Positions 19,730-53,500 of a stretch of DNA of 64,000 nucleotides are shown here, one piece after another. The notes beneath the pieces are model-generated. The model worked only from the letters and a program-made list of their open reading frames with translations. It had not been told where the DNA came from and searched no databases. The DNA is taken from positions 213,750-277,749 of the forward strand of contig JBGAIB010000005.1 of the NCBI GenBank assembly GCA_044225825.1. Reading direction: 5' to 3'. This DNA is from Chitinophagales bacterium (GTDB lineage: Bacteria; Bacteroidota; Bacteroidia; Chitinophagales; LD1). Within the stretch, counting starts at the first letter, position 1; each line of letters starts with the position of its first letter. The translations under genes were made by a program, and so were the position numbers.

Positions 19730-19891
19730 GCGCGGTAGATTGATATAGTCAAATATGTAAACTATCGGTCTGTCGATAAAAAAATGTTTCCGTATATTCG
19801 GGAAGTTGAAAGGCTTGATTCCATTGCCTACAAGCAACAAATCGTTGATTTTCAAATATTAATACCATTTAACCAATATAAGTCGAACGCC

Positions 19892-23525: not shown

Positions 23526-23632
23526 GGCCCTAAAATATTCTTTTAGTCCATAAGATGCAGACTCCAGGTGGAGGATTGTATGCCCATCTTAACATCCGTT
23601 CACACTCTTATCTGTAAAACGGTGATTCCTTC

Positions 23633-24520
23633 TTAGAAATGTCCGCCACTCTCAGGGCGGTTCAGAAAATAAAGATGTTTTTCCTTCTGTACGTCAAAAG
23701 GCAGTTTCATCACCTTAATTTCATAAAAATCAACCGGAAAAATATAATTATCCCAGGTAATGATTTTAGCTATATCAAATAAATTCTGAAAGTCGTTGGA
23801 GATGGTTAAATGCTCAAACTCTCCTACCTTAACTTCAGGGGTTTTTACAAACAACACCAAAAAGTTTAAGCGCCGCATAACCTTCAGCACCTCATACAAA
23901 TCAGCCACCTGATAGCAGTATGCATCGTTTATAGCCTTTACAATTGCATCTATTTTAGCCCCATCTTCCGGTGTTGGTGCTTCACGCTTAAATAAATCCT
24001 TTATATAGAGCATTCCTCCCGGCCTCAATACCTTCCAGGCTTGCTCAATAAGCCGTGCCTTATCGTTTGAATGACCAAATGATTCCAGGAACATTACCCG
24101 ATCGAAGCGCTCCGGACCGTAAATGGTTTCTAAATCGTGATAATCGCCTAATTGGATATTAACCTTACCTTTTAATTGCCGCGCGGAAACAATTTCCTTC
24201 GACTTCTCGACCTGATACGGGGAAATAGTAAGTCCTTCCACCTCTACATCCAATCTGGATGCAAAATAAGTAGCCGGACCTCCCACACCGCAACCGGCAT
24301 CTAATATTCTCAACCCATCTTTTAACTCCGCATTCTGAACAGTATAGTCCAGGTAAACCGAAATATCGGTTGTGCGGAAAGCCTGAATGATTTCGCCATA
24401 TACTTCCAGGAACTTATCGGTATGCTGATTATAGAAATTGCCGACCTCTGCTGGCTTAGAGCCTTGCTGCCTGCCCGCTTCTTCCTTTCCTCCTCCCAAT
24501 ATTTTTGTTAACCATCCCAT
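23633..24520 (-). CDS. class I SAM-dependent methyltransferase
   Basis: Motif I ILDAGCGVGGPATYF, followed by post-I acidic and motif II/III-like spacing. 4-nt gap from the upstream GT-C gene, so same operon. Confidence 0.8.
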   Translation of the reverse strand: MGWLTKILGGGKEEAGRQQGSKPAEVGNFYNQHTDKFLEVYGEIIQAFRTTDISVYLDYTVQNAELKDGLRILDAGCGVGGPATYFASRLDVEVEGLTISPYQVEKSKEIVSARQLKGKVNIQLGDYHDLETIYGPERFDRVMFLESFGHSNDKARLIEQAWKVLRPGGMLYIKDLFKREAPTPEDGAKIDAIVKAINDAYCYQVADLYEVLKVMRRLNFLVLFVKTPEVKVGEFEHLTISNDFQNLFDIAKIITWDNYIFPVDFYEIKVMKLPFDVQKEKHLYFLNRPESGGHF

Positions 24521-24524
24521 AAAA

Positions 24525-39613: not shown

Positions 39614-41525
39614 AGCCGGCGCTGCGGTCCTTACCTGTTCCAACATCGGGAAAACCTACCGGCTTGCCGCTGGTAACCGAACCGTATTGTCCGATGTTAG
39701 CTTCGACCTTAAGAAGGGCGAAGTGCTGGGTATTATCGGGGCTAACGGTGCCGGTAAAAGCACTTTATTAAAAATACTTTCCGGCATTGTAAAACCAAGC
39801 GAAGGCCGTGTTGAACTATACGGCAGCAGCGCTTCGGTACTTGACCTGGGCCAGAACTTCCACCCTGACTTAACAGGCACAGAGAACGTGCTGATGAACC
39901 TGAAAGTTAACGGTGTTACCTCCGAGAACACAGCAGCCAAACTCGCCGAGATCACGGCCTTCAGCGAATTGCAGGAGTATATGAACGAACCGGTGAAGCA
40001 TTACTCCAGCGGTATGTTGCTGCGCCTTGGCTTTGCCCTTTATACCCACCTGGATGCCGACATCATTCTGCTGGATGAAATCATCTCGGTTGGCGATTTT
40101 AACTTCCGCAAAAAGTGCAGTGATAAAATTCAAGAGTTGGTTAAGAAAGGCGTATCGTTCCTTATCACTTCGCACGATCTGGACGCCATTCATTACTTAA
40201 CCGAACGCTGCATACTTTTGCAACACGGCGCAGCACATGTGGGCTACACATCGCAGGTAATTGAAAGCTATTTATCCAATCAAACACCTGTTGCACCTGT
40301 AACACCAACGGCAGATGGCCCCTCTGTTCTACTGACCAATGCCTTTACTGAACCGGCACTTAACGGATTAAATTCAGAAAGCGCCATTCAATTACATTTC
40401 CATTTCCAGGTATTGCAGCCCACCGAACTTGCGCTAAGCATCAACATGTTCTTCGATCAGTCGTTGCGGTTACTTAGCAGCAGCCCTGTATTTTATAAGC
40501 CCGACGCAGCACATTTATATGCGCCTGGTAACTACAAAGCCATGGTGCAATTACCGGCCCAAACATTCGCCCCCGGACTGTACGATATTGATGTGGTGTT
40601 CCACAACGGCCGAGGACGCATTTATGGCACTCATAAAAAGGCCATCAGCTTTAGCCTGGCATCCAATCCGCACTGGAACAATCTGCTGAACCAAAGTAAT
40701 ACCCCCTGGGCATTGCTGCCAAACCTGCCCTGGCAAATTGAAAGCCATACGCAGGAGGAGCCGGTGATTATTAAAGATGCCCGACTGCAGCAACAACTTA
40801 CCGAAGAGGGGTACACCTTTTTTCCGCCGGTTCCCGAAGCAACTATTGATGCCCTTGCAGCTTATATCAGTTCGCAAATGCACCACTTTACTCCCGAAAC
40901 CATATCCTGTGTTTCGGTTACACACCCCGATGCCTTGTTCCGGCAACAGTGCCAGGAGGTGATATACCGCGAGCTTGATGAATACCTGCAGCAGCATTTC
41001 AAAGACTACCAATGCGTGCTGGGCACTTTTTTTGTAAAACGCCCCAGCAACATCAGCAGCGTTGGCTACCACCAGGATCCTACCTTCTGCGATCCGGAGC
41101 TATACCCGGATTTAACCTTGTGGATACCGCTGGAAGACATTGGTGCCGGTGATGGCGAACTGGTTGTAGTAGAAGGCACACACCGCAGCTACAATAAACT
41201 TAACCTGCTTACCTACACCCCCGATTATATCCATCAATACAAGGACGGGGACGGTAAGGTACTTTACCAGCAGAAAGGCTACCCGGTATTGTTTTATAAC
41301 CACCTGCTGCATGCTTCGCGGCCCGTTGTAAACAAACAGGTACGGTTAGCAATTTCTTTAAAGCTGGCACATAAAGATGCCTTGCTGTATTCCTATTATA
41401 AGAGCACCGTACCCGGTATGGCTGAGCGATACAAGCAATCACCTAACTTTTTCCTTTCGCAGGACTGGCAGCCATTCGACCGGCCACAGCAATCGAAATT
41501 TGATAAAGAAATCCCTATCCGGTAA
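39603..41525 (+). CDS. Wzt/TagH-type ABC ATPase fused to a beta-rich middle (Wzt_C-like?) domain and a C-terminal PhyH dioxygenase domain
   Basis: Walker A GANGAGKSTLLK, signature YSSGMLLRLGFA (Wzt/TagH/KpsT variant), Walker B IILLDE. Residues ~390-640 carry the N-box DARLQQQLTEEGYTFFPPV, HxD VGYHQDPTFCD, WIPLEDI, distal LLHASRPVVNKQVRLA. Confidence 0.85.
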   Translation: MLTKAGAAVLTCSNIGKTYRLAAGNRTVLSDVSFDLKKGEVLGIIGANGAGKSTLLKILSGIVKPSEGRVELYGSSASVLDLGQNFHPDLTGTENVLMNLKVNGVTSENTAAKLAEITAFSELQEYMNEPVKHYSSGMLLRLGFALYTHLDADIILLDEIISVGDFNFRKKCSDKIQELVKKGVSFLITSHDLDAIHYLTERCILLQHGAAHVGYTSQVIESYLSNQTPVAPVTPTADGPSVLLTNAFTEPALNGLNSESAIQLHFHFQVLQPTELALSINMFFDQSLRLLSSSPVFYKPDAAHLYAPGNYKAMVQLPAQTFAPGLYDIDVVFHNGRGRIYGTHKKAISFSLASNPHWNNLLNQSNTPWALLPNLPWQIESHTQEEPVIIKDARLQQQLTEEGYTFFPPVPEATIDALAAYISSQMHHFTPETISCVSVTHPDALFRQQCQEVIYRELDEYLQQHFKDYQCVLGTFFVKRPSNISSVGYHQDPTFCDPELYPDLTLWIPLEDIGAGDGELVVVEGTHRSYNKLNLLTYTPDYIHQYKDGDGKVLYQQKGYPVLFYNHLLHASRPVVNKQVRLAISLKLAHKDALLYSYYKSTVPGMAERYKQSPNFFLSQDWQPFDRPQQSKFDKEIPIR

Positions 41526-41526
41526 T

Positions 41527-42387
41527 ATGGCACCACTATTCCGCAATGCGCAGTTACAGCAACAATTCGAGCAGAAAGGCTATACCAAATTTCCGGCAAT
41601 AGATGCCGCTGTTGTTGATGAGTTGCTACAGCTATATAACAGCTACGAAAAAGAACACCGCGAAGGTATAAATACCAGTTTCCATAGTACCAGCCATACT
41701 GAAAACGAAGCCTTGATTCACCGGATAAGCTATGCCATTATTGACAAGCTTAAGCCTGAACTGGATAAACACCTGCAGCACTACAAGTTTGTAGCAGGCA
41801 ACTTTTTAATAAAAGATAAGAACGCTGACGAAGAAGTGCCACCCCACCAGGACTGGACTTATGTTGAAGAACCAGCCCATTGGTCGGCCAATATTTGGAT
41901 TGCCCTACGCGATGTACCGGTAGAAAATGGCGCCCTGTTTTTTATTGACGGCAGCCACCGCATGGCACCCTCGATGCGCTCCTCGCCCGGTAACGGCTGG
42001 ATGTATGCCGGCGCTACCGAAGCCATGCAACAGTTGCGCATCGTAGTACCGTTAAAAGCCGGCGAAGGATTGTTGTTCAACAACGCCACTATACACGGAT
42101 CGGTGGCCAACACCCTGCAACGCGAACGGGTAGCCGCCGTGGTTGGTTTGTATGATGCCGAAAGCCCGCTTTATCATTATTACCAGGAAAAAGGCAGTAA
42201 CGAAATTACGCGTTACACCATTTCGCAGGACGATTTCATAAAACTTAAGTTCGGCAAACGGCCCGAACATTACCAGCAGGTTGAACAGCCTTATACCTTT
42301 ATCTACAAGCCGGTAACTAACGAGGAGTTTAAAGCCCTTTACAAAAAAACCAACGGAAATTGGTGGAGCAGGCTTTTGCATAAGTGA
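41527..42387 (+). CDS. PhyH-family Fe(II)/2OG dioxygenase (paralogue 3)
   Basis: ATG 41527, 1 nt after the upstream stop (the track ORF 41377 extension overlaps the previous gene). MAPLFRNAQLQQQFEQKGYTKFPAI, PPHQDWTYVEE, WIALRDV, TIHGSVANTLQRERVA, tail NWWSRLLHK. Confidence 0.75.
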   Translation: MAPLFRNAQLQQQFEQKGYTKFPAIDAAVVDELLQLYNSYEKEHREGINTSFHSTSHTENEALIHRISYAIIDKLKPELDKHLQHYKFVAGNFLIKDKNADEEVPPHQDWTYVEEPAHWSANIWIALRDVPVENGALFFIDGSHRMAPSMRSSPGNGWMYAGATEAMQQLRIVVPLKAGEGLLFNNATIHGSVANTLQRERVAAVVGLYDAESPLYHYYQEKGSNEITRYTISQDDFIKLKFGKRPEHYQQVEQPYTFIYKPVTNEEFKALYKKTNGNWWSRLLHK

Positions 42388-42390
42388 AAC

Positions 42391-42558
42391 CAGAGAGCAG
42401 AAAGCAGAGATCAGAAATCAGACAAGGCAGTTAGCGCTGTCTGTAACTTTACACTTCTTTACACTTTTTGAAAGCAGAGAGCAGAAAACAGAGAACAGAA
42501 AGCAGACAAAGCAGTTAGCGCTCGCTGTAACTTTACACTCCTTTACAGTTTTTTTTTG
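42391..42558. repeat. 2 x 84-bp tandem direct repeat immediately after the PhyH stop codon
   Basis: Unit 1 is 42391-42474 and unit 2 is 42475-42558, both cagagagcagaaa(g/a)cagaga(t/a)cagaaa(t/g)cagacaa(g/a)gcagttagcgct(g/c)(t/g)ctgtaactttacac... Unit 1 contains cagaca...tgtctg inverted arms around the agcgct palindrome. Confidence 0.8.
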
Positions 42559-42687: not shown

Positions 42688-43227
42688 CGGAAAAAATTTA
42701 AAGTGTTTGGAGAAGTGCATGGTGGGGACGTATACGGTTATTAGCCCGGTGCGGTTTCGGTAAAAGGTTTACATTGACGTGTAAACTTTTTGATGGAGGG
42801 GCAAACACAGCCGGGCAAATGCCTTTACCGCCGGCATGGTTCCGCCATTACATCCTTTACGCACTGCGGCGATTTCAAAGAACTGGTTCAGGCTATAAAT
42901 ATACGTATTTAGATTTTATTTTTCAATTTTTATTCTTTTTAATTGCAGCGTAGGTGAAGATTTAACATTTGGGGGCGGGGTGGCCGTTGTCTGAACTAAG
43001 ATTCGTAGGATTAGGGGATGGTAGGATGAATACAAAAAAGGGAGTTTTTGAGTATGTATAGGAGACGGCACTAAACTCCGAACCAGCATGGAGCTAAAAA
43101 AGCGTAAAAAACACCCCTAAAACACGCACTATTTTGGCATTTTATGACATATTTAGAGCCAATTTTGTTCTTTGAAATGCGCTGAAATTCAGCGCCGTAT
43201 CCACAGTTCCGTTACCATCCCTTTGGG

Positions 43228-44220
43228 ATGCTAATGCCGGGGCGCATATATACTTCAAATACATATCGTTATGGGTTTAATGGAAAGGAAAAGGATGATG
43301 ATGTAAAGGGCAGTAGCGCACAGTATGATTATGGTTTTCGTATCTATGACCCTAGATTAGGAAAATTTTTAAGTGAGGACCCCTTAACTGAATCTTATCC
43401 CTGGTATTCGCCATATCATTTCGCCGGAAACACACCGATAATGGCAATAGATGTTGATGGGTTAGAGCCGCAGGTTGTTATTGACAAAGCCAATGAATAC
43501 ATTGGCACACTATATGAATGGGGTGGAAAAAGTCCTACAGCAAATTGGAAAGGAATTGGAATAAAGTTAAGAACAATAAGTGACGGCGATGTTAATTCTT
43601 TTTTATCAAAAATATCATTGAAGTTTAAAGATTCAAACCCTTCCGACAAACCCAAAATATATGATGAAATAAATGAAGGGATTTTCTTGGATGGATATAA
43701 AGTAAAATATGGAAATGGAACCTTTGGAATAGATTGCTCTGGTTTAGCTACGGCCAGCTTTAATGCTGATCAAGAAAAAATAATGAATAACTTTAATCCT
43801 GGAATTGCCTCAGCGCAAATGCAATACAATATATTTAGTCAGGCAACTTTAGAAGGGAAAGGCATTTTGCACCGTGACTTTAACAGTATCGGGAAAGGAG
43901 ATTTAGTTTTTCATAAAAACGGAAAAAAGGTGCATCATGTAATGGTGGCAACAGGCAATGTTTCATTGGATAAAAACGGGAATGTCAATAAATTTGAAGT
44001 AATACATGCCCCGGAAAGCGGAAAACAGGTAAGAACTGAATGGATGACGCCTAAGAAAGGACACTCCATTGGCCATACTTATCGGAATGGTGACATTTTG
44101 ACCCCCATAAATTTAGACGATCTACAGAGTTTTGAAGATTTAAAAGCTATCGAACAGAAGATGGAGCAAAATATAGAAAAATTCAAAAATGAAAATCAAC
44201 ACGTGGTTACACCTGAATAG
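43228..44220 (+). CDS. orphan Rhs-core-tip fragment fused to an NlpC/P60-like peptidoglycan hydrolase toxin domain (cassette A)
   Basis: MLMPGRIYTSNTYRYGFNGKEKDDD...YDYGFRIYDPRLGKFLSEDPL...IMAIDVDGLEP is the last ~80 aa of an RHS-associated core including the DPxGL-type tip. Then YEWGGKSP, GIDCSGL, GDLVFH and HHVMVATG are NlpC/P60 hallmarks (catalytic Cys/His). Confidence 0.8.
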   Translation: MLMPGRIYTSNTYRYGFNGKEKDDDVKGSSAQYDYGFRIYDPRLGKFLSEDPLTESYPWYSPYHFAGNTPIMAIDVDGLEPQVVIDKANEYIGTLYEWGGKSPTANWKGIGIKLRTISDGDVNSFLSKISLKFKDSNPSDKPKIYDEINEGIFLDGYKVKYGNGTFGIDCSGLATASFNADQEKIMNNFNPGIASAQMQYNIFSQATLEGKGILHRDFNSIGKGDLVFHKNGKKVHHVMVATGNVSLDKNGNVNKFEVIHAPESGKQVRTEWMTPKKGHSIGHTYRNGDILTPINLDDLQSFEDLKAIEQKMEQNIEKFKNENQHVVTPE

Positions 44221-44755
44221 TAGCTGGTCAATTCTAATAGTAATTGGTTTGTTATGGAGCTGTGATTCAATTTCGGTAAGTAACGTTAAAACGACAAAAC
44301 AGCATTCTATCTACCAAGATTCTTTGCAAAAGAATGGCTTTTTCGAATTTCAAAGTTACTTTGTACATCTTGATAGTAGTTCTACTGAAGATAAACAGAG
44401 AATTCCGTTTGAGGTAGCAATTCGTTTTTTGGGGAATGAGCTTGATAGTGTAAATGGCGTATATGAAATACTACCTGTTGCTTATTTTAAAAACAATAAT
44501 GGTCATTTCTTCATTGTACAACTTGATTGTGGAGCAGGTGGAGATTGTGCTTTTTTCTATTTGTTAAGTTTTAATAGTAATTTGGGGTTTAATAATAAAA
44601 AGCTAATAGGGAGAGAAGTCGGAGAGCTATCTACCTCAACATTCTTTGAGTATTATAGAGGGGCAGACTCATTATTAGTTGTAAACGAGATTCTATATGA
44701 CAATAATAATGATACATATATAGATACCATCATGACTAAAATTTTGCTAAAGTGA
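44189..44755 (+). CDS. cognate immunity candidate, lipoprotein (cassette A)
   Basis: Overlaps the toxin 3' end by 32 nt. Signal/lipobox SILIVIGLLWSCDS. A periplasm-facing immunity protein is as expected for a cell-wall-targeting toxin. Confidence 0.6.
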   Translation: MKINTWLHLNSSWSILIVIGLLWSCDSISVSNVKTTKQHSIYQDSLQKNGFFEFQSYFVHLDSSSTEDKQRIPFEVAIRFLGNELDSVNGVYEILPVAYFKNNNGHFFIVQLDCGAGGDCAFFYLLSFNSNLGFNNKKLIGREVGELSTSTFFEYYRGADSLLVVNEILYDNNNDTYIDTIMTKILLK

Positions 44756-44920
44756 TACCTGTAGAGCGGTTACTGGTTGAATCGTCTGATAGGTCACGAA
44801 CCTGGAGGACAAGTAATGCCCCTCTGTTAGTTTCAGATCTTCAAAATTGACCTTTTAATTTATCAGGAGCAAGTATAAGAAGGATGAGTGGGAGCATAAC
44901 CAACCATATCTAGTAAGTTT

Positions 44921-45358
44921 TCAGTTAAGATTAATTGAATCGACAATTGATTGTAACTCCTCCACCTTCCAATATATACGAGGGTGTTGGTCAATAATCA
45001 CTCTATCACCAATCATGATTTTCAAAAATGATCTGTCATACTTCGTAAAAGGTTCGCGCCTCATGAATACAGAAATCTCATCTATGTTTGTCTTGCATAT
45101 GATTTCGTTAGAGTATAAATATCCAATGATATAAATATAGCCATTGGAAATTTTAAAACTCTTTAAGCAATATTTCTGATAATATGCACTGCTAATTAAA
45201 GAAAGAAATAAAACTAATACGGGTATGGCAAATATAATTGGTGAAACTGGTCCTTTAAATAAGTAGACAAAAAAGATTATAATAAATATAACTATAAAAT
45301 AATACGATATACTAAAAAAGTCTTTTATTACTCGAGTATAATATTTGGGGGTACTGTT
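44921..45358 (-). other. 145-codon open frame downstream of toxin B (immunity position) with two TM helices but no ATG/GTG/TTG start
   Basis: Own translation: NSTPKYYTRVIKDFFSISYYFIVIFIIIFFVYLFKGPVSPIIFAIPVLVLFLSLISS...IYWKVEELQSIVDSINLN*. The first canonical start is an ATG ~100 codons in. Not in the ORF track. Confidence 0.3.
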
Positions 45359-46264
45359 TTATAGAGATCAATGTCCTTATCTGGGTTTGTTTTCATTATC
45401 TTTCTTTTTTAAATTATCATTTTGTTCTACTAACGTGATTACCAGATTTACGGATGAAAGTCCTTTATCCATTCCGTCCAAGAAATTTTTAGGCAATTCC
45501 GTAGGATTAAGGGTCATTACACCATCAACAACGTTTACAACAGCAGTAACAGTTTTATTTTCCTTTCCCTTTGTAATCGACAATGTAACTTTGTAAGCAC
45601 CATCCAACAAGTTGGTGGGTACATTATCTGACTTTTCATAATCACCTTTCAAATCAAAAATAAGCTTGCTTGATCCTCCTAGAACAGCTACTGTGCTTGA
45701 GGTAAATGTAAAGGCCGCAAGAAATCCAGAAGCACCACCAGTAGCCAGAATAGAGACTACAGCACCTGATATGAGTATCACATCTTTAGTTACTTTGGTT
45801 TCTTTAGGAGAATTATATCCGCTATTACCTGGATCATAACTACCTTCCAAACTTTCTGAATGTTCCGCCAACCTAGCTAGTGTATAAAATCTACTATAGT
45901 CATTATAGTAAGGATTTCCGCTCCAATCTGTTGCTTTATATCTTCCAATGTTAGTCCAATTGCGCCGTTCAGTTTCATTTAATTTTATAGGCCACCCGTG
46001 GGGATGCTCTTCAATTTTACCTGTTATATTATTTTGATAAAAATCATCTCCATTGGGATCAACATTTAGGATAGGATTAAGACCCAATATCGCATAATTG
46101 CTGCGATACTGCTTATATCTAGGATCAGAGTTCCATCTCCGCGCCAACCTTGTGTCGTACTCCCAAAATTTAGCGTTTAGAGTGTTCCCGCATCCACTTA
46201 GCTCGTCATCTTTTACCTGTCCATTTGTAGGCTTCCCTGTTATTAGGCCAGCTATTAGTTGATT

Positions 46265-47105
46265 TTACGAATATACAATATCAGGTAAAAGATCAGCAGG
46301 GGTTAGGTAGTTCAAAGCTTTATGTGGGCGGTGATTGTTGTAATCTATCATCCATTCTTCTGCCTTCTCCCTTACATCCAGTGATTTAAATACATAAGCA
46401 TTCAGGAGTTCACGGCGTATTGCCGTTACATCTTTCTATATATCCATTTTGCATAGGCTTACCGGGTTGAATAAAGGTTAGTTGTATCTGGTGTTCCTGC
46501 CTACATGTCCAGTTGGAGAGATAAACTCAGGGCCATTATCTACTCTTATCATAACGGGTAAGCCTCTGAATTCTTTTAAGTATTCCAAGGTTCGTATGAG
46601 CCTCAGTGTGGGTAAAGACAGGTCTGCTTCTATAGCCAATACTTCGCGGTTATAATCATCAATAATATTCAGTAAGCGGAACCTTCTGCCATCCCACAAG
46701 GTATCGCTCATGTAATCAATACTCCATACCTGGTTAACGCCCTCTGGCCTGAATAGAGCCTGTTTTTTACACGGGCAGGCAGCCTCTTACGGTACCCGCC
46801 TGCGGATATTGAGTTTTAAGTCTGTATACACCCTATACACCTTTTTATGGTTCCAGATAAATCCCTGTCGCCTGATGCGGTAGAAGCATTGCCAAAAGCC
46901 AATGGCCGGGTGCTTTTTTCCACAAGCACCTGTAGTTGTTCTATAACCTTGCTATCGTCCTTAATTACCGGCCGGTAATTTTGACTGCTTCGCGGTATGT
47001 GCAGCGCTTTACAAGCCTGACGGATGCTTACGCCATGTTCTTCAATCATGTGTTTCGCAAGCTCGCGCTTCTCATCAGGCTCTATAGCTTTTTTTCTACT
47101 GCGTC
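46265..47105 (-). pseudogene. IS3-family transposase OrfB (rve integrase core), disrupted
   Basis: Pieces in three frames: ...HPAIGFWQCFYRIRRQGFIWNHKKVYRVY...RRRVP* ; [34 protein letters not shown]...RVDNGPEF ; QPGKPMQNGYIER ; EKAEEWMIDYNNHRPHKALNYLTPADL. At least two extra frameshifts and one in-frame stop beyond the programmed -1 site. Confidence 0.75.
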
Positions 47106-47348
47106 TTTCAAAGCATGGTGCACAAGGCTCAGCTCCGCATACATGCGCTTTAAACGGGAGTTTTTCGCTTCTAATTCCTTTACACGCTTTAATTCCGCTA
47201 CTTCCATGCCGCCGTAACGTTGCCGCCATTTGTAAAAGGCACCGGTGGTAATACCTAACTCCCGGCAAATGTCCTTGGCATCACGGCCTTTTTCATGTTC
47301 CTGGATGGCCTTGATAATCTGGGTTTCTGTGAAGTTTGACTTTTTCAT
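47082..47348 (-). CDS. IS3-family transposase OrfA (HTH)
   Basis: [73 protein letters not shown] is the typical IS3/IS911 OrfA with a leucine zipper. Start at ATG 47348. Confidence 0.8.
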
Positions 47349-47479
47349 AATTGAGCTTTTTAAAGTTGTGAAAAATTTGTCCTTTTTCAACTTTTAACTG
47401 GCTCAATTTTCAGGGGAGCTTACACATTAAACCCATAACGGTATGTAGCTGAGGAGTATATGCGCCCCGGCATTAGCAT

Positions 47480-47692
47480 CCCGAAGGGATAGTGGTATTT
47501 TTCAAAGAACTATGTATAAATATAACCGCTTTCTTTGGCTGGTAGTAATGTAATTTTCGATAAAGGTCAGTTACAATTGAAGGGGATTGCAAAGGCATTA
47601 CAAATTCCAAACCAGTCACATCCTCGTCCCCTAACCATTGGCCAGGCTACAGACAAGGACGAGTTGGGGGTTAACTATCGTGTGCTGTTAAG
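47480..47692 (-). repeat. conserved non-coding cassette leader, copy B
   Basis: Near-identical to 49005-49220 over ~165 nt (gggatagtggtatttttcaaagaactatgtataaatataac...ggtagtaatgta...gttacaattgaa...gattgcaa.ggcattacaaat.ccaaaccagt.acatcctcgtcc), then a ctcgtcc/ggacgag stem. A stop codon lies just upstream of the YHYPFG coding homology. Confidence 0.8.
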
Positions 47693-47717
47693 AGTTACTA
47701 AATACTGTGCTTAACAA

Positions 47718-48035
47718 CTAATCCTTATATCCTTTACTTTCGATGAATTGGTTAAACAAGTCAGCAAACATTTCTCTCGTATGAGAATCTGAACCTGAAT
47801 ACAAACGTATTAGTTTAACCCAATCAAAATTGTCTTTGTGTTCATAACGATGATTAACAAACTCTCGGAATTCCACCATAAATTGGGTAAGAAGCTCATT
47901 TTCCTCCTTTTCGAAAATGGCATATTTGTATCCTAAAATTACCAAACCCATTTCTTCCACTCTATTGACACCATACATCCCGGGTCTTTCATTAATGGCG
48001 TTAATAAACTTTATAAAATGATTAATCCGTTTCAT
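47718..48035 (-). CDS. cognate immunity candidate (cassette C, 105 aa)
   Basis: ATG directly abuts the toxin stop (TAAATG). Cytoplasmic-looking. Contains ERPGMYGV. Confidence 0.6.
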   Translation of the reverse strand: MKRINHFIKFINAINERPGMYGVNRVEEMGLVILGYKYAIFEKEENELLTQFMVEFREFVNHRYEHKDNFDWVKLIRLYSGSDSHTREMFADLFNQFIESKGYKD

Positions 48036-49004
48036 TTACTCGACTTTTGTAGAAAATTCTTGAATTAATTTTTCACCTGATATTGATACGGTTCCACCTT
48101 TATCGTAACGTACACCACCCATTTCTTGCATATATTTACTCATTTCAATTCCCTTTGTATAGAAATTATCAAAAACTGTGGTCACACCATCTTTGGTAAC
48201 CGTTGTATATTCATGTATACCGGTGTTTGCAAGCTGTTTTTCAAAATTCCCAATAAGACCACTACCATCCTTTAAATCAATTCGATAATGCGCAACTGTT
48301 GCTCCTTCTTTCTCTAAAGCAGGAGCAACTCGTTTCATAAAATCAGCCGCAAAATCCATGCAAGCAGTTCCTCCAATTTTCCCTGCGCCTTTAAGCAATA
48401 ACTCTCCACCGGGACCTATTAATCTTGTTAAAGGGCCAACAACCTTACCCAGCTTAAAGAAAGGAATTATACCCAAAGCTTCAATGATATAGTCCTTCTT
48501 AGTAATTTTTTCGTTTTGAGCTTTTTTATAAGCCAACGTTGAGCCTGGTACAATCAATTTAATCATCTCAACCTGGTTGTTGATAACCATTTGGCCCTCC
48601 GGACTTCCGTATAGCCCAGTGCCTCGAATTTCTGGTTGCGGTGCAACAATCTGTAGCACAGGCTGAGGTTTTATCTGGATGTCAAGGGGCTTCCTATACA
48701 AATTACCAATATCACCAGATCCCATATATTGACGCCCTAAGCCAATGTCTATCCATCCACTTTCTCTGCCATCAATGTCCACAAACTGAACAGGATCATT
48801 TTCTGCAAACTGGTATACAGTTAGCCACGGGTAATTCATTGCTAAAGGATCAACGCTTAAAAACCTCCCAAGCCTTGGATCATACACTCTAAAGCCATAA
48901 TCCTGCTGGCTTCCGGTTATACCCTTAGCCTCATCGTCATTTTCCTTTCCATTAAACCCATAACGATATGTATTTGAAGTATATATGCGCCCCGGCATTA
49001 GCAT
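48036..49004 (-). CDS. orphan Rhs-core-tip fragment + unassigned toxin domain (cassette C)
   Basis: MLMPGRIYTSNTYRYGFNGKENDDEAKG...YGFRVYDPRLGRFLSVDPL...VQFVDIDGRES, then a ~240-aa variable C-terminus with no motif I can assign. Confidence 0.75.
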   Translation of the reverse strand: MLMPGRIYTSNTYRYGFNGKENDDEAKGITGSQQDYGFRVYDPRLGRFLSVDPLAMNYPWLTVYQFAENDPVQFVDIDGRESGWIDIGLGRQYMGSGDIGNLYRKPLDIQIKPQPVLQIVAPQPEIRGTGLYGSPEGQMVINNQVEMIKLIVPGSTLAYKKAQNEKITKKDYIIEALGIIPFFKLGKVVGPLTRLIGPGGELLLKGAGKIGGTACMDFAADFMKRVAPALEKEGATVAHYRIDLKDGSGLIGNFEKQLANTGIHEYTTVTKDGVTTVFDNFYTKGIEMSKYMQEMGGVRYDKGGTVSISGEKLIQEFSTKVE

Positions 49005-49220
49005 CCCAAAGGGATAGTGGTATTTTTCAAAGAACTATGTATAAATATAACTGCTTTCTGTAGCTGGTAGTAATGTACCTTTCGATGTAGACAAGTTACA
49101 ATTGAAATAGGATTGCAAGGCATTACAAATGCCAAACCAGTTACATCCTCGTCCGCTTAGCTGAACCCTTGGCTTAAGACGAGGACGAGCTGGGGTATAC
49201 GGGTTCGCTTGCTGTTAGAA
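49005..49220 (-). repeat. conserved non-coding cassette leader, copy C
   Basis: See copy B. Contains the ggcattacaaatgcc hairpin (49119-49133) and the tcctcgtc (49146-53) / gacgagga (49178-85) stem. Confidence 0.8.
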
Positions 49221-49323
49221 ATATAATAAACCGGCACCTTATTGAACTGGACATCTCAGGTAATTGAACCATCAGTAACCCGCAATCATATTCCTGAGCG
49301 GCTTCACATTTTTGGTATGAACA

Positions 49324-49884
49324 CTACCGAAATATGACGCTAATGGGATTAGAGAGAGAGTCATTTAGATACAAACTTGCATGTTTTACTTTTTCAATAT
49401 TTCTAAAGTGACCTGGAAGTGAATGTACAACTTGATATCTATCAACAAAGGTGTTCAAATTTTTCGTATTCGTGATTGGTAAAATATATTTGGACATGTG
49501 TGTTCCACCAGGCAAAAGCAACACACATAACGGAGAATTTGCATCGGCTACTACTATTGCTGAAGAAAAATAGCTAGGCTGAATCTTATAGTAGGCTCGG
49601 ATTAGTATAGGATCAATGACAGAATCTATGGAAATATACGATACAAACAAAGAATCATATACTATTGCCTTTTTATGCACATTGCCCAAAGTCACTAACG
49701 TATCTAGTGAAATATTAGTTTTTATTACTGTCAATAGAATACATTTTTTTTTGACTTCAAAAGTATACTTTGATTGAATGTAATTATCCCTATAATAAAA
49801 TATTTTATGAGTAGAGCCAAGGCTTGTAAAATTAATTGAACATACACATAAAAGTAGGGCAAACAATATCTTTCTTGTAATCAT
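49324..49884 (-). CDS. cognate immunity candidate with signal peptide (cassette D)
   Basis: Track ORF starts at TTG 49917. ATG 49884 gives a clean signal peptide MITRKILFALLLCVCSINFTSLGS. Confidence 0.55.
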   Translation of the reverse strand: MITRKILFALLLCVCSINFTSLGSTHKIFYYRDNYIQSKYTFEVKKKCILLTVIKTNISLDTLVTLGNVHKKAIVYDSLFVSYISIDSVIDPILIRAYYKIQPSYFSSAIVVADANSPLCVLLLPGGTHMSKYILPITNTKNLNTFVDRYQVVHSLPGHFRNIEKVKHASLYLNDSLSNPISVIFR

Positions 49885-49955
49885 ATTTTTCCTGTTTTCA
49901 AACTGATCATGCACCAATCTTTTTAAACCACCATAACCTATACCATTTTTGTTTA

Positions 49956-50933
49956 CTATTTATCAGCACCTTGTTTTGGACCAGGTTCAAAATTCCAATC
50001 ATCATTTTTCGATGGCTCTAGCGGTGAGCCACTTGTTCCTTCCGGTTTACTAGAATAATCATCAGGAAGAGGAGAGTTCCACTGATAATCTGTACCGGGT
50101 ACGTTTGGAAGCCCCTTCAATACTTGATTTTGAGGATATGGCCCCTTGTAGTGTGAAGGATCATTATCAACACCCGGATTAATATGATCGGAACCATCTC
50201 TAAGTTTTTTATGGAACAACTTTCTTACCAAATTTTCAAATCCAACTGCCCATTGATGCTGATCGTTAGCGTTAAAATACAGATAGCCAATTGGATGTCC
50301 TAACTCATGCCAAAATACAAAAAATTTTGACTGAAAGTAACCTGCCTGTGCATATCCAAAGTTTGAACCAATGCCTGTTGCTGCATACAATGTTTGTCCA
50401 GCATAGCCCATAGGGGTTGTTGCATTAGCCTCGTCAACCACATACTGCTTCCGGTCTGCACTCCATGTGAAGTTGGTCAAATCAAATCCCATAAATTCAT
50501 AATGCATGTTGATATTATTTACAACCTTAGCAATGAAATAATCTAAAATAATTTTACGATTCCCCGTAAAATGCATGTTTTGTCCATTATGCACTAGCTG
50601 ATTGCCATTAAAACTAAAACCATTATCCTTTCCAAACGTCCGTCTAAGTATTCTTAGTATAGTCTTCTGGCTTGAAGCATTAAAACAAAAAAAGTCCTCT
50701 CCTCCTTTATCCATGAACAATATCGGAGAGTTGCCGCCAAAACTATAGGGTGCTAAGTAAGGATAGGATGCTGATAAAGGATCTATGCTCAACCATCTTC
50801 CTAACCTATTATCAAAAATCCTCGCACCAAAATCCAAACTATTGCCATCTTCTTTTATTTCATTATCCTTTTCCATACCATTGAAGCCATAACGATATGT
50901 ATTTGAGGAGTATATACGCCCTGGCATTAGCAT
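49956..50933 (-). CDS. orphan Rhs-core-tip fragment + HExxH zinc-metallopeptidase-like toxin domain (cassette D)
   Basis: MLMPGRIYSSNTYRYGFNGMEKDNE...FGARIFDNRLGRWLSIDPL...ILFMDKGGEDF, then the C-terminal domain with FFVFWHELGHPIGY (HExxH). Confidence 0.7.
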   Translation of the reverse strand: MLMPGRIYSSNTYRYGFNGMEKDNEIKEDGNSLDFGARIFDNRLGRWLSIDPLSASYPYLAPYSFGGNSPILFMDKGGEDFFCFNASSQKTILRILRRTFGKDNGFSFNGNQLVHNGQNMHFTGNRKIILDYFIAKVVNNINMHYEFMGFDLTNFTWSADRKQYVVDEANATTPMGYAGQTLYAATGIGSNFGYAQAGYFQSKFFVFWHELGHPIGYLYFNANDQHQWAVGFENLVRKLFHKKLRDGSDHINPGVDNDPSHYKGPYPQNQVLKGLPNVPGTDYQWNSPLPDDYSSKPEGTSGSPLEPSKNDDWNFEPGPKQGADK

Positions 50934-51080
50934 CCCAAAGGGATAGAGATATTTTCAAAGAACTACATATAAATATAAACATTCCTTCGTTAGCAGGCAG
51001 TGAAATTGTTTTTGCTATAAATTGACGACACAGATGATAGAGTAATCGGGCATTACAAATGCTGGCCTCGGACGAGATTG
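50934..51080 (-). repeat. conserved non-coding cassette leader, copy D (more diverged)
   Basis: Shares gggatag..tattttcaaagaacta.atataaatataa, then gggcattacaaatgc and ggacgag blocks with copies B and C. Confidence 0.6.
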
Positions 51081-51244
51081 TTATGAAATTTAGCAGAGCC
51101 TTTTAATTTCCTCTTATCGCTTCTGATTTTTAGGGGTGTTTGTATGTCAAGTATTAGGATATGCCATTTTTAAAAAGTTTCGACCATGATAATATGAGCA
51201 TATAACAAAGGGCGTCTTGAAGAAATCATGAGCATCTTTTTCAC

Positions 51245-51670
51245 TCATTTCGAGACATAAATGATTCTATCATATACATCCGTAGTTATATAAGCCTCAG
51301 GATGATTTAAAGAAGACAAAACGAAATACTGATTTCCAGGATAAATTCGGAACCGACTTGGACCTAATGTATCGCTTACTTCATCTATTACCAATCCTGT
51401 CGTATCTATCTGTCTTAAAAGATCAATTGCCTTCTTCTTCTCTATCGAATCTCCGATGGAAAAAAAATTATCCTCATCTGTTGGTCCTACTCTTAGAATG
51501 ATTCGCTTTATTCTAGAAGCAAGTATCATAGAGTCGCTTGGGCTTGAGCCTTTATTGCAATCTCTTATTTTTACCATACCCCAAGAAAATATAATACCAC
51601 AGATCCCGATTACAACTCGTCCTCGCATTGACCATACAGCCCTTCTATATAGTTGCCTTGATGTTATCAT
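51245..51670 (-). CDS. cognate immunity candidate (cassette E, 141 aa)
   Basis: ATG overlaps the toxin stop in an ATGA arrangement (51667-51670). One N-terminal hydrophobic helix (VVIGICGIIFSWGMV). Confidence 0.6.
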   Translation of the reverse strand: MITSRQLYRRAVWSMRGRVVIGICGIIFSWGMVKIRDCNKGSSPSDSMILASRIKRIILRVGPTDEDNFFSIGDSIEKKKAIDLLRQIDTTGLVIDEVSDTLGPSRFRIYPGNQYFVLSSLNHPEAYITTDVYDRIIYVSK

Positions 51671-52644
51671 TCCTGTTCGTCTTGTTTATTTTGCTGTTTT
51701 TTCTTATTCGCATCTTCAAATGCAGAATCAAGCTCATTAGCAGCCTGAATACGTGCATTGTTCATGATCTTTTCGATTTTCTTTTTAACCATTTCTTGGG
51801 GTTTGTATAGATATAAGGTTTCACCAAATTTGACATTTTTAGCATTAGGATCATTTTTAACATCATCAGCGCTTTTCTTATGCTCCTCATCGAGCCATTT
51901 CTTGTTGAATGTAAATGTTCCATTCTCATCTACCTCACCTATCCCTTCGGTTTGTAAAATCTGAACTGCTTTTGCGTCAAGCAATAGTTGATAATAATCG
52001 GTTTTTTTAAATTCTGTATATTGATCTGCAGAAAAAGATGCCGTAGATATCATTAATTCTAAAGCTACGGCGGCATCAACTTTTCCAAGTTGCTCTAATG
52101 AACTACCTACCTTCATGCCAATCACTCCTAAACCTATACCTAACCAATCACTGAACCCGAAGCTTACGCTATTATCTTTGCCTGCTAGGATTGCCTTTGT
52201 AAAGGTCGCACTCCAACTAATTTCAGGTAAAAAGGGTACACATCCAGCGATGTTTAGTGCCTTCAAATCAGATATTTTAGTAACTTTTATTTGTGCTGAA
52301 GAAATCTTATGAAAACCTTCATGGCCTTGTTTACCTAGTGGACACGTTCCAATATAGCATAATGTACTTTCAATCCAGTAATTGCCATCTATTTCGACAT
52401 TTTTTATGGGCGAGTTAGAAACAAAAGCAAAGGGTGAAACATCAGGATAATCCTTATTCAATGGATCTACTGATAACCATTTGGCAATCCGGCTATCGTA
52501 TATTCTTGCACCTGCATCAAAGCTGTTTGTCGTGCCATTTATTTCTCCATCACTTTCCTTTCCATTAAACCCATAACGGTATGTATCTGAGGAGTATATG
52601 CGCCCTGGCATTAGCATCCCAAACGGATAGTAATGCATTTTCAA
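51667..52644 (-). CDS. orphan Rhs-core-tip fragment + unassigned toxin domain (cassette E)
   Basis: MKMHYYPFGMLMPGRIYSSDTYRYGFNGKESDGE...AGARIYDSRIAKWLSVDPL...IKNVEIDGNYW, then a variable C-terminus with a hydrophobic Gly-rich stretch (FSDWLGIGLGVIGMKVGSS). Confidence 0.75.
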   Translation of the reverse strand: MKMHYYPFGMLMPGRIYSSDTYRYGFNGKESDGEINGTTNSFDAGARIYDSRIAKWLSVDPLNKDYPDVSPFAFVSNSPIKNVEIDGNYWIESTLCYIGTCPLGKQGHEGFHKISSAQIKVTKISDLKALNIAGCVPFLPEISWSATFTKAILAGKDNSVSFGFSDWLGIGLGVIGMKVGSSLEQLGKVDAAVALELMISTASFSADQYTEFKKTDYYQLLLDAKAVQILQTEGIGEVDENGTFTFNKKWLDEEHKKSADDVKNDPNAKNVKFGETLYLYKPQEMVKKKIEKIMNNARIQAANELDSAFEDANKKKQQNKQDEQE

Positions 52645-52680
52645 AGAACATTAGGCTAATATATGATATTATGGTTTAAG

Positions 52681-52703
52681 TAGTCCCGACAGGAATCGAA
52701 CCC
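52681..52703 (-). other. tRNA 3'-end-like fragment (T-loop + acceptor 3' strand), possible old att remnant
   Basis: The minus strand reads GGGTTCGATTCCTGTCGGGACTA: GTTCGATTC T-loop consensus plus a 7-nt acceptor-like strand. The sequence 5' of it does not fold into a cloverleaf. Confidence 0.35.
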
Positions 52704-52798
52704 TTATTGATGGATTACGCCCTAATAGCTATATGTGCCGGAAAGATGAATTACTTATAGCTCTCTTAAAATAAAGTTGGTTACAATTATCAATGCCC

Positions 52799-53500
52799 CT
52801 ACTTCCCCAACCTACCCTTAAACCTACGCACCACTCCTATCAAATTTAAAGTTTCGCTGATGGCCTGTAGGACAGTTTTAAGAGAGCCGCCTTTGGGGGC
52901 ACCGGCCATGCGCGACATATAAACGGAGGGTAGTTGTTTTACCTGCGCACCGGCCTTTAGCAGTTTGGCTGCCAGTTCGCTTTCTACCAGTGAGCTGTGT
53001 AGTTCGATACCGGTAAAGCTGAGTTGCTCTTTACGATACACCTTTATCCAGTTTACATCGTGCAGGGTGATGCCTAAAAAGATGCGGTTAAAGAAGCGGT
53101 TGGAGCGGTGCAGGATGGTGCGGTAGAAATTGTAATCGGGTTGCGGGCGGTAGAAACTGTAGAACATGGTGTTGGCAAAAGGTTCTACCTTTTCCAGTTC
53201 CCAGATATCGAATTGCCCGTCGCCGGGCACGGCGCATACATAATCGTATTGCGCAGTAAGGTAACCGCTGCGCAGTGCTTCGCCGATGCCTTTGTTAAGT
53301 TGGTGGCGGATTACTTTTAAGGTGCTTATCTGTTGTTGTAACACCTCGGCAATAGCGGGTGTTTTATCGGTGCTGCCGTCATCTACCAGGATGATTTCCC
53401 AATCGCCGGCATTTTTGGTTAAGAACTCAGCAACCTGATTGACCGTTTTGGCCAGGGCACCTTCTTCGTTATAGGCAAATACAATGATAGACCAGTTCAC
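52799..53500 (-). CDS. GT2-family glycosyltransferase, polyprenyl-phosphate sugar synthase-like (soluble, 233 aa)
   Basis: GTG start. IIVFAYNEEGALAKTV...EIILVDDGSTDKT (GT-A DxD region) resembles Dpm1/ArnC/GtrB-type enzymes. Last gene of the minus-strand PhyH operon. Confidence 0.75.
   Translation of the reverse strand: MNWSIIVFAYNEEGALAKTVNQVAEFLTKNAGDWEIILVDDGSTDKTPAIAEVLQQQISTLKVIRHQLNKGIGEALRSGYLTAQYDYVCAVPGDGQFDIWELEKVEPFANTMFYSFYRPQPDYNFYRTILHRSNRFFNRIFLGITLHDVNWIKVYRKEQLSFTGIELHSSLVESELAAKLLKAGAQVKQLPSVYMSRMAGAPKGGSLKTVLQAISETLNLIGVVRRFKGRLGK

Follow-up and report, generated by a model that had tools for sequence, protein, structure and literature searches.

A probable detached reservoir of orphan Rhs toxin/immunity cassettes at a variable chromosomal site in Chitinophagales

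We analysed a 64-kb stretch of DNA from a Chitinophagales genome (contig JBGAIB010000005.1), hereafter called the window, and found that the chromosomal site between a GT2 gene and a PhyH gene holds an AT-rich, variable island of 9.7 kb (43040..52760) with five Rhs-tip open reading frames (ORFs). The ORF list and its translations place one of them (c1) on the forward strand, facing the other four (c2-c5) on the reverse strand, as a previous reading made from the sequence only had described. Each cassette encodes the last ~85 amino acids (aa) of the RHS core (TIGR03696) followed by a distinct toxin domain, and four of them (c1, c3, c4 and c5) are intact and carry an immunity candidate gene. Considering all the results below, we believe that the island is probably a detached reservoir of orphan Rhs toxin/immunity cassettes, hypervariable and horizontally acquired, which resides at a fixed hot spot and serves mainly as an immunity bank. 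It is an ordinary and poorly described reservoir of a known kind.

According to this model, a cassette would consist of a recombination block, a variable toxin together with the rest of the tip, and then an immunity gene; the block would be the place where cassettes are gained, lost and exchanged, by homologous recombination or by gene conversion. The selected cargo would be the immunity genes, which would protect the cell against the Rhs toxins of its neighbours and may be expressed when transcription of the co-oriented GT2/PhyH operon reads through. The toxin halves would form a silent reserve, deliverable only once recombined onto a full-length rhs gene elsewhere in the genome. We favour the immunity genes as the selected cargo because a sister genome carries a run of toxin-less small ORFs at the same site, and because apparently exported immunity proteins are paired with envelope-type toxins.

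The cassettes and their shared block

The intact cassettes scored 50.1 (c1), 53.5 (c3), 38.7 (c4) and 41.4 (c5) bits against TIGR03696, whose curated cut-off is 32.5 bits, and covered this model of 76 positions from positions 1-13 to 75-76. By sequence, the c1 tip also aligns to the cocoon end of TcdB2-TccC3, YenC2 and mosquito SGS1. The C-terminal domains of the cassettes are mutually unrelated. The genes of the intact cassettes are as follows:

43228..44220 (+): c1 toxin, tip (43213-43470) and NlpC/P60 domain with DCSG and HH motifs (PF00877, 2.6e-07)
44189..44755 (+): c1 immunity candidate, 188 aa, whose N-terminal hydrophobic segment includes a lipoprotein-like LLWSC
48036..49004 (-): c3 toxin, tip and Tox-PL-2-like papain-fold domain (23.6 bits, with a cut-off of 25; homologues carry PF15643)
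47718..48035 (-): c3 immunity candidate, 105 aa, lacking a hydrophobic segment; a homologue adjoins the P0002 toxin in the related locus L075
49956..50933 (-): c4 toxin, tip and HExxH (HELGH) domain with no family match
49324..49917 (-): c4 immunity candidate, 197 aa, TTG start, N-terminal hydrophobic segment; a toxin-less homologue, 35% identical, lies in the sister contig L077
51667..52617 (-): c5 toxin from the MLMPGR Met, C-terminal domain with no match; the mechanical ORF starts from a TTG at 52644, inside the 11-mer described below
51245..51670 (-): c5 immunity candidate, 141 aa, N-terminal hydrophobic segment

All four toxin ORFs (316-330 aa) are fully open. Toxin and immunity candidate overlap by 32 nt in c1 and by 4 nt in c5, abut in c3, and are 38 nt apart in c4. 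The toxin domains of c4 and c5 gave no sequence match in the PDB. The c3 toxin and immunity candidate are found as a pair also in L075, and in another genome the nearest relative of this pair is the first of the orphans that follow a 4172-aa Rhs. A putative autoproteolysis motif, PxxxxD-x-D/N-G, appears to be kept in c1 (PIMAIDVDG), c3 (PVQFVDIDG) and c2 (PILNVDPNG), and to deviate in c4 (PILFMDKGG) and c5 (PIKNVEIDG).

The N-terminal hydrophobic segments of the c1, c4 and c5 immunity candidates are read here as signals for export or membrane anchoring. If this is so, the corresponding toxins would act outside the cytoplasm and be inert when made inside the cell. For three of the four toxins the apparent target is the envelope, and the c3 immunity candidate appears to be cytoplasmic.

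We did not observe an Rhs shell anywhere in the 64-kb window, since tblastn searches with six full-length Rhs proteins (1958-4046 aa) matched the ~85-aa tips only. Likewise, we found no N-terminal export or delivery domain (signal peptide, DUF6443 or PAAR) on the cassette proteins, which begin at the core tip.

The five cassettes share a block, GGGATGCTAATGCCRGGGCGYATATA, with five occurrences in the window against 0.00 expected. Relative to the ATG, the copies are 80-93% identical from -12 to +80, after which the ungapped identity falls to 24-54%. A perfect run of 76 nt is shared by c1 and c3 (43217-43292 = 48940-49015), which are inverted and 5.6 kb apart. The constant part covers ~25 codons at the start of the RHS-associated core domain (YPFGMLMPGRIY..YRYGFNG), and PFGMLMPGRI and TYRYGFNG are invariant in seven copies, two of them from a sister genome. 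Judging from these alignments, only the first ~25 codons are constant and the tip beyond them is a part that co-varies with the toxin. On their 3' side the perfect blocks stop at different distances from the ATG (~65, 90-100 or 143 nt), which is easier to reconcile with gene-conversion tracts than with a single crossover site. A palindrome of 13 nt, ATCCCTTTGGGAT, is made up of the YPFGM codons, and the synonymous positions of the block differ between genera.

An inter-cassette spacer of ~200 nt also recurs in the window (47425-47632 and 48950-49157, 87% identical), with further copies in sister contigs (L077 9145-9369, 11025-11097 and 12142-12220; L076 15602-15679). It holds the inverted repeats CTCGTCC..GGACGAG and GGCATTTGTAATGCC.

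The remaining cassette, c2, is split by an insertion sequence (IS), and its parts are the following:

45377..46221 (-): 3' part of the c2 toxin, comprising a tip of divergent subtype (FWEYDTRLARRWNSDP) and a hydrophobic segment rich in glycine
46226..47424 (-): IS3-family element of 1199 bp with inverted repeats (IRs) TGTAAGCTCCCCTG.. / ..CAGGGAAGCCTACA and a target duplication AATG (46222-46225, 47425-47428)
47425..47479 (-): 5' part of the c2 toxin with MLMPGR (MLMPGRIYSSATYRYGFN), severed by the IS
44756..45376: gap at the position expected for a c2 immunity gene, where ORFs on the c2 strand do not exceed 47 aa

The element shows all the features of the IS3 family, namely TG..CA IRs, a 4-bp target duplication, an orfA with HTH_Tnp_1 and an orfB with rve. 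Its orfA is intact (PF01527, 8.9e-20), and its orfB is broken into rve and rve_3 fragments across at least three frames. Both halves of the interrupted toxin ORF are still fully open: once the IS and one of the two AATG copies are taken out, 47479-47425 and 46221-45377 form a single open frame of 299 codons, starting with MLMPGRIYSSATYRYGFNGQVKDDE. Against TIGR03696, the 3' part alone reached 14.6 bits and the rejoined sequence 23.4 bits (E 6.4e-05, model positions 2-75), which is under the 32.5-bit cut-off. The c2 C-terminal domain matched no family. We infer that c2 is a dead copy.

The c2 tip subtype (..FWEYDxRxxRRWNxDP) also ends long Rhs proteins elsewhere. The two tip subtypes, NGKE..YDPRxGRFLSxDP and NGQEK..FWEYDxRxGRRWNxDP, have only the first ~25 codons in common, are both present on long Rhs proteins, and coexist in the same arrays (c2 in the window, L077 9296-10222, L068 ~12982 and many others).

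The sequence-only reading had taken these genes for orphan Rhs C-terminal toxin/immunity modules, and the core of that call is right, as indicated by the TIGR03696 scores of c1, c3, c4 and c5 (a profile check that it had named beforehand), the cocoon alignment, and the c3-like pair behind the 4172-aa Rhs. It was also correct in seeing no full-length rhs nearby and in describing divergent C-termini, which we now assign to NlpC/P60 (c1), Tox-PL-2-like (c3) and HExxH (c4) domains, with no match for c2 and c5. Its count of five cassettes has to be revised to four intact ones: c2, which appears in the ORF list at 45377-46147 (-), is split by the IS, and a further copy of the block at 47406-47501, belonging to the severed 5' end, was missing from its list. 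Similarly, the tightly coupled small ORF that it placed after every toxin exists as described in c1, c3 and c5; in c4 a gap separates the two genes, and c2 has none.

The same site in sister genomes and related loci in Bacteroidota

The GC content of the island (0.33-0.42) is lower than that of its flanks (0.44-0.50), with the cassette genes at 0.31-0.40, and this low GC suggests a foreign origin. We delimited the island and a remnant beside it as follows:

43040..52760: variable island, from the GC profile and from the points where homology to the sister contigs L076 and L077 ends (43038-43042 on the left, 52759-52800 on the right)
42842..42883 (-): terminal stub in the conserved left flank, a solo 11-mer (42874-42883) with a decayed tip start (..GGATGTAATGGC..)

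The GT2 protein of the window is 98% identical to MFN8300340.1 from a Chitinophagales metagenome-assembled genome. We compared three syntenic contigs, L001, L076 and L077, which match the window at 82-88% identity in their flanking DNA. L001 has only two convergent cassettes, which carry other toxins (334 + 111 aa and 294 + 80 aa), and its homology to the window enters the tips from both flanks and ends 62-160 nt after the start. In L077 we found five small, co-oriented, toxin-less ORFs (137-171 aa), including the relative of the c4 immunity candidate, and after these a single cassette of the c2 type, a tip remnant truncated at its 5' end and an ORF of 299 aa. L076 has neither a cassette nor a tip; it holds unrelated genes (membrane protein, beta-lactamase-like, RimK-like and acetyltransferase) together with remnants of the spacer and the stub. 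The terminal stub occurs in all three contigs, in two copies in L076. The gene tables of these contigs list no full-length rhs and no recombinase at the site. Since the contents of one site differ in this way across sister genomes, we regard it as a hot spot of long standing, at which the contents have undergone replacement and not erosion alone.

The island is flanked by an unusual group of at least eight paralogues with a PhyH domain (PF05721; 37882-42387 and 53516-59169). This cluster, which is kept in the three sister genomes, includes double-PhyH proteins, an ABC-ATPase-PhyH fusion, GT2, an ABC-2 permease and DsrE/DsrC-like genes. Two tandem repeats of 84 nt (89% identical, CAGARA-rich) occupy 42385-42552, directly 3' of the stop of the PhyH gene at 41377-42387. 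A 2490-aa ORF (12383-19855, reverse strand) was considered as an Rhs candidate and rejected, as its domains are CarboxypepD_reg and transthyretin-like; it adjoins BatA/VWA and TPR genes (21501-27275, reverse strand) in an arrangement resembling an aerotolerance operon. A possible tRNA 3' end or att site upstream of c5 (GGTTCGATTCC..CCA) was rejected as well, because ARAGORN predicted no tRNA in the window and Rfam gave nothing at E up to 1. We found no relatives of the tips in IMG/VR, so carriage by phages is not supported, and PADLOC matched no protein.

To place the island among its relatives, homologues of the c3 toxin were collected. The best 120 are all 180-554 aa long, and 81 of the 116 motif-bearing ones among them begin at or beside the Met of FGM. 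An exhaustive representative search returned ten proteins longer than 1000 aa among the best 150 (1062-4046 aa). These long Rhs proteins share the tip at 49-72% identity (nine of the ten at 66-72%) and continue for ~60-400 aa after it, with ~200-280 aa in the six that we examined further. Several of them have signal-peptide-like N-termini, and DUF6443 is also carried by long relatives.

We then considered 73 loci from GTDB species genomes, mostly of Chitinophagaceae, with others from Mucilaginibacter, Pedobacter and Flavobacteriia. They comprise main rhs genes followed by orphans on the same strand, main genes facing an orphan, and arrays with no main gene. Among 21 loci that could be scored, the window excluded, the orphans are linked to a main gene on the same strand in six, convergent with one in four and detached in eleven. 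An array with no main gene is normal for the phylum. The complete chromosome of a Winogradskyella (NZ_OZ245845.1; L033 10016, L014 10016) carries a main rhs and an opposite-facing orphan ~31 kb apart, and the two share a perfect block of 158 nt that starts exactly at GATTACTATCC, the homology boundary of the orphan. The pair shows directly that an orphan far from a main gene can be kept in register with it.

Expression, the conserved 11-mer and alternative explanations

An 11-mer, AGTTCTTTGAA, lies upstream of every cassette. The word GTTCTTTGAA has six copies in the window against 0.18 expected, the sixth being the solo copy of the terminal stub. The five copies that precede cassettes are:

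43167..43176 (+): 11-mer GTTCTTTGAA of c1, long-spacing class (51 nt before the tip)
47501..47510 (-): 11-mer of c2, inside the spacer 47425-47632
49026..49035 (-): 11-mer of c3, in frame TAG TTC TTT GAA
50954..50963 (-): 11-mer of c4, cassette frame GTT CTT TGA
52640..52649 (-): 11-mer of c5, cassette frame TGT TCT TTG AAA, ~150 nt 3' of the GT2 stop

In 54 non-identical upstream regions of orphans from several genera (L002-L077), A-GTTCTTTGA-A/T is the sole conserved element. It is found 15-24 or 43-53 nt before CCnTTyGGnATG, that is, 24-33 or ~52-62 nt before the start codon, and it is conserved as DNA, occurring in all three reading frames. At ~140 nt before YYPFGM in full-length rhs genes, this word encodes the K-F-F-E of KFFELSNHLGNV. 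The 11-mer is not the canonical Bacteroidota -7 box TAnnTTTG, and no partner or -33-like box was found at a fixed distance upstream of it. A possible hairpin or attenuator in the stretch that separates the 11-mer from the tip was dismissed as a general trait, because only 3 of 11 sequences beat their shuffles (z below -1.9). The 11-mer may serve in transcription as part of a promoter, may take part in recombination, or may be left over from a deletion derivative that the copies have in common.

Every copy has an in-frame stop shortly before the MLMPGR Met, as the sequence-only reading had reported; the distance is 7-14 codons. That reading had also stressed an ATG retained right at the homology boundary. 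The ATG is indeed present; the conservation starts earlier, at the 11-mer, and the Met is the conserved core Met of YYPFGM, found in 39 of 41 rhs copies in long ORFs (more than 200 aa upstream). Since the Met is a core residue, its retention is a weak argument for autonomous expression. Furthermore, there is no TAnnTTTG box within 150 nt of any cassette start codon, and a sigma-70 scan performed no better than on shuffled sequences. The cassettes c5-c2 are co-oriented with the GT2/PhyH operon and downstream of it, and no terminator-like site is predicted on their strand; read-through could therefore express them.

The earlier reading had left open whether these genes form a remote reservoir or are expressed on their own. 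We favour the remote reservoir, with the role of an immunity bank added, because detached arrays are common, the Winogradskyella pair provides a precedent, the immunity candidates have hydrophobic N-termini and a -7 box is lacking. Several points weigh against this conclusion. First, a matching full-length rhs of the source genome was not found: scans for the exact block in collections of genome and metagenome contigs, which do not include the source genome, gave zero matches. Second, the 11-mer is conserved in front of each cassette, in all three frames and in different genera, and so may have a function for which the model has no use. Third, by analogy, the cassettes might have a promoter of their own, as orphan Rhs-CTs of Salmonella are expressed from a conserved internal promoter, P2, and behave as toxin-antitoxin (TA) modules (PMC7043789). 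Finally, four fully open toxin ORFs are unneeded for a purely silent reserve, although recent acquisition would explain them too.

As an alternative, an integron- or shufflon-like mechanism may operate, in which a XerC/D-like enzyme encoded elsewhere in the genome inserts, excises or inverts cassettes at a site that lies within the tip block, within the 11-mer or close to either. Such an enzyme would account for the common 5' boundary of the copies and for their two orientations, and the 11-mer that precedes each cassette and marks the stub, as well as the 13-nt palindrome ATCCCTTTGGGAT, could be seen in the same light. Homologues (35-46% identical) of a XerC/D-like tyrosine recombinase of ~345 aa (PF00589) occur in 15 related loci; in at least seven of them the gene is divergent from a short orphan and lies 100-145 nt from its start, often in arrays facing a main rhs. 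Recombinases placed head-to-head with the first orphan are found at:

L018 8801-9874
L019 8819-9892
L009 6837-7913
L010 5528-6589
L071 8838-9872
L004 5352-6407
L068 13229-14308
L075 12973-14013

In L068, L071 and L010 the recombinase-headed array faces a full-length rhs. The combination of a recombinase, intact Rhs cassettes and a facing main gene suggests, indirectly, a shufflon-like or integron-like system. XerC/D genes are also known beside polyimmunity loci (PMC3482391) and arrays of recombinase-associated acquired interbacterial defence genes (rAID; 10.1101/471110). For the island itself we nevertheless consider this explanation rather unlikely. Searches by tblastn with 14 recombinase homologues found no recombinase in or beside it at E below 1, and no remnant of one was found in the window, including the 840-nt non-coding stretch left of c1, nor do the gene tables of the sister loci (L001, L076 and L077) list any. 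The variable 3' ends of the perfect blocks and the synonymous differences between genera do not suit such an enzyme, and joining at the 11-mer would break the rhs frame in two of the three frame classes. Even the recombinase-led arrays show no repeats or att-like sites beyond the tip blocks.

A broader version of this idea is that Bacteroidota (Chitinophagaceae, Sphingobacteriaceae and Flavobacteriaceae) possess standard mobile cassettes, each composed of the 11-mer AGTTCTTTGAA, a short stub, a ~80-nt block, a variable tip with its toxin and an immunity gene, which are handled by a dedicated XerC/D-like family, with the island being a satellite that has no recombinase and is serviced in trans. 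We put this forward only tentatively and regard it as doubtful. If true, the XerC/D-like family would collect or invert cassettes, or load them onto full-length rhs genes, amounting to an integron- or shufflon-like system for contact toxins.

It is less probable still that the cassettes are autonomous TA modules acting in the producer cell, with the 11-mer as part of an internal promoter. The Salmonella promoter P2 (PMC7043789) is a precedent, the 11-mer is conserved as DNA in all frames, lies within two ranges of distance from the start codon and also occurs inside main rhs genes, the toxin ORFs are intact and the c3 immunity candidate is apparently cytoplasmic. However, the 11-mer is not the TAnnTTTG box and has no partner box at a fixed distance, and the start Met is explained as a core residue. 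In addition, the c1, c4 and c5 immunity candidates have hydrophobic N-termini and the c1 toxin is of the peptidoglycan-hydrolase type, so that on our interpretation these toxins would be inert in the cytoplasm, and sister genomes drop toxins while keeping small ORFs.

We give little credit to the view that an rhs locus has lost its main gene and survives here as a decaying island with no present function. The IS-split c2 with no immunity gene, the decayed left stub and the loss of all cassettes in L076 would be in line with decay. On the other hand, four toxin and four immunity ORFs remain open at 31-40% GC, where stops are frequent; the locus persists in four genomes that differ by ~13-18% in their flanks, with its contents replaced; and the 76-nt perfect block of c1 and c3 indicates recent recombination.

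Finally, a split Rhs, in which the tip-toxin proteins supply the plug, the autoprotease and the cargo in trans to a tip-less shell encoded elsewhere, much as TcB/TcC cocoons take up C subunits from distant loci, is highly improbable: the cassettes do keep nearly the whole TIGR03696 unit, equivalent to the cocoon-closing end of TccC3, short forms do outnumber long ones (the best 120 homologues being 180-554 aa, with 81 of 116 starting at the Met), and remote 'orphan' C subunits do function in Yersinia entomophaga (PMC11067744), but those are complete C subunits of ~970 aa rather than 85-aa stubs, every full-length Rhs that we examined has its own tip and toxin with no tip-less shell seen, and c4 and c5 deviate at the second autoprotease motif.

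Relation to known systems and significance

Orphan rhs-CT/rhsI modules and C-terminal displacement have been described in Enterobacteriaceae (Jackson 2009 PMC2935791; Poole 2011 PMC3150448; Koskiniemi 2014 PMC3967940). As in those orphans, a 5'-truncated rhs keeps the end of the core, a unique toxin is followed by an immunity gene (here a candidate), the modules form arrays and the core homology offers a handle for recombination. Unlike them, the island is not downstream of a main rhs (there is none in the 64 kb or at the sister sites), has cassettes in both orientations, truncates all copies at YPFGM with the same 11-mer before each, and resides in Chitinophagales.

Arrays of polymorphic-toxin cassettes and polyimmunity loci, beside which XerC/D genes have been noted (Zhang et al. 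2012, PMC3482391), resemble the island in their stand-alone toxin cassettes with adjacent immunity genes and in contents that vary between close strains. By definition, polyimmunity loci are never interrupted by toxins, whereas the island consists mostly of toxin and immunity pairs, and only L077 has a toxin-less run.

The orphan-immunity arrays of Bacteroidales known as acquired interbacterial defence (AID) systems include rAID-1, which is defined by XerC/D genes (Ross et al., bioRxiv 10.1101/471110). Like rAID-1, the island is AT-rich (GC at or below 41%), hypervariable, equipped with a repeated intergenic motif and found in Bacteroidota, with protection from the toxins of neighbours as the likely benefit. 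Indeed, the rAID-1 signature of at least two co-oriented short genes with GC at or below 41% and a repeated motif is present here (0.31-0.40; the 11-mer). In contrast to rAID-1, the window has no XerD-like recombinase with which the array could be co-directional, intact toxin ORFs are present, and the island has no mobile-element genes except those of the dead IS.

The Rhs-CT TA modules of Salmonella (Starsta et al. 2020, PMC7043789) are similar in that a short, delivery-less Rhs-CT is accompanied by an immunity gene (a candidate in the island) and a conserved DNA element occurs upstream of the CT in main and orphan copies. They differ in that the Salmonella promoter was experimentally defined, whereas the 11-mer has no partner box and most immunity proteins of the island are apparently exported or anchored.

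The island can also be compared with invertible DNA, namely shufflons and invertible hsdS-type loci. As in these, one copy faces several in the opposite orientation that share a short identical block with it, and in loci related to the island a tyrosine recombinase stands beside an array that faces a full-length gene. The window differs from these in having neither an expressed full-length gene nor a recombinase, and no inversion isomers were observed.

The part that merits a dedicated study is the pattern of 11-mers and recombinases across genomes. The 11-mer and the head-to-head recombinase family could reveal a route of toxin-tip exchange in the phylum, which would leave our verdict on the window unchanged. 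Altogether, these findings place the textbook enterobacterial orphan Rhs modules in soil Chitinophagales, in a detached form that is frequent and, at this site, occupies a stable hot spot with turnover between sister genomes. This speaks in favour of an upkeep of such arrays mainly as immunity banks and toxin reserves, akin to the AID systems of gut Bacteroidales.

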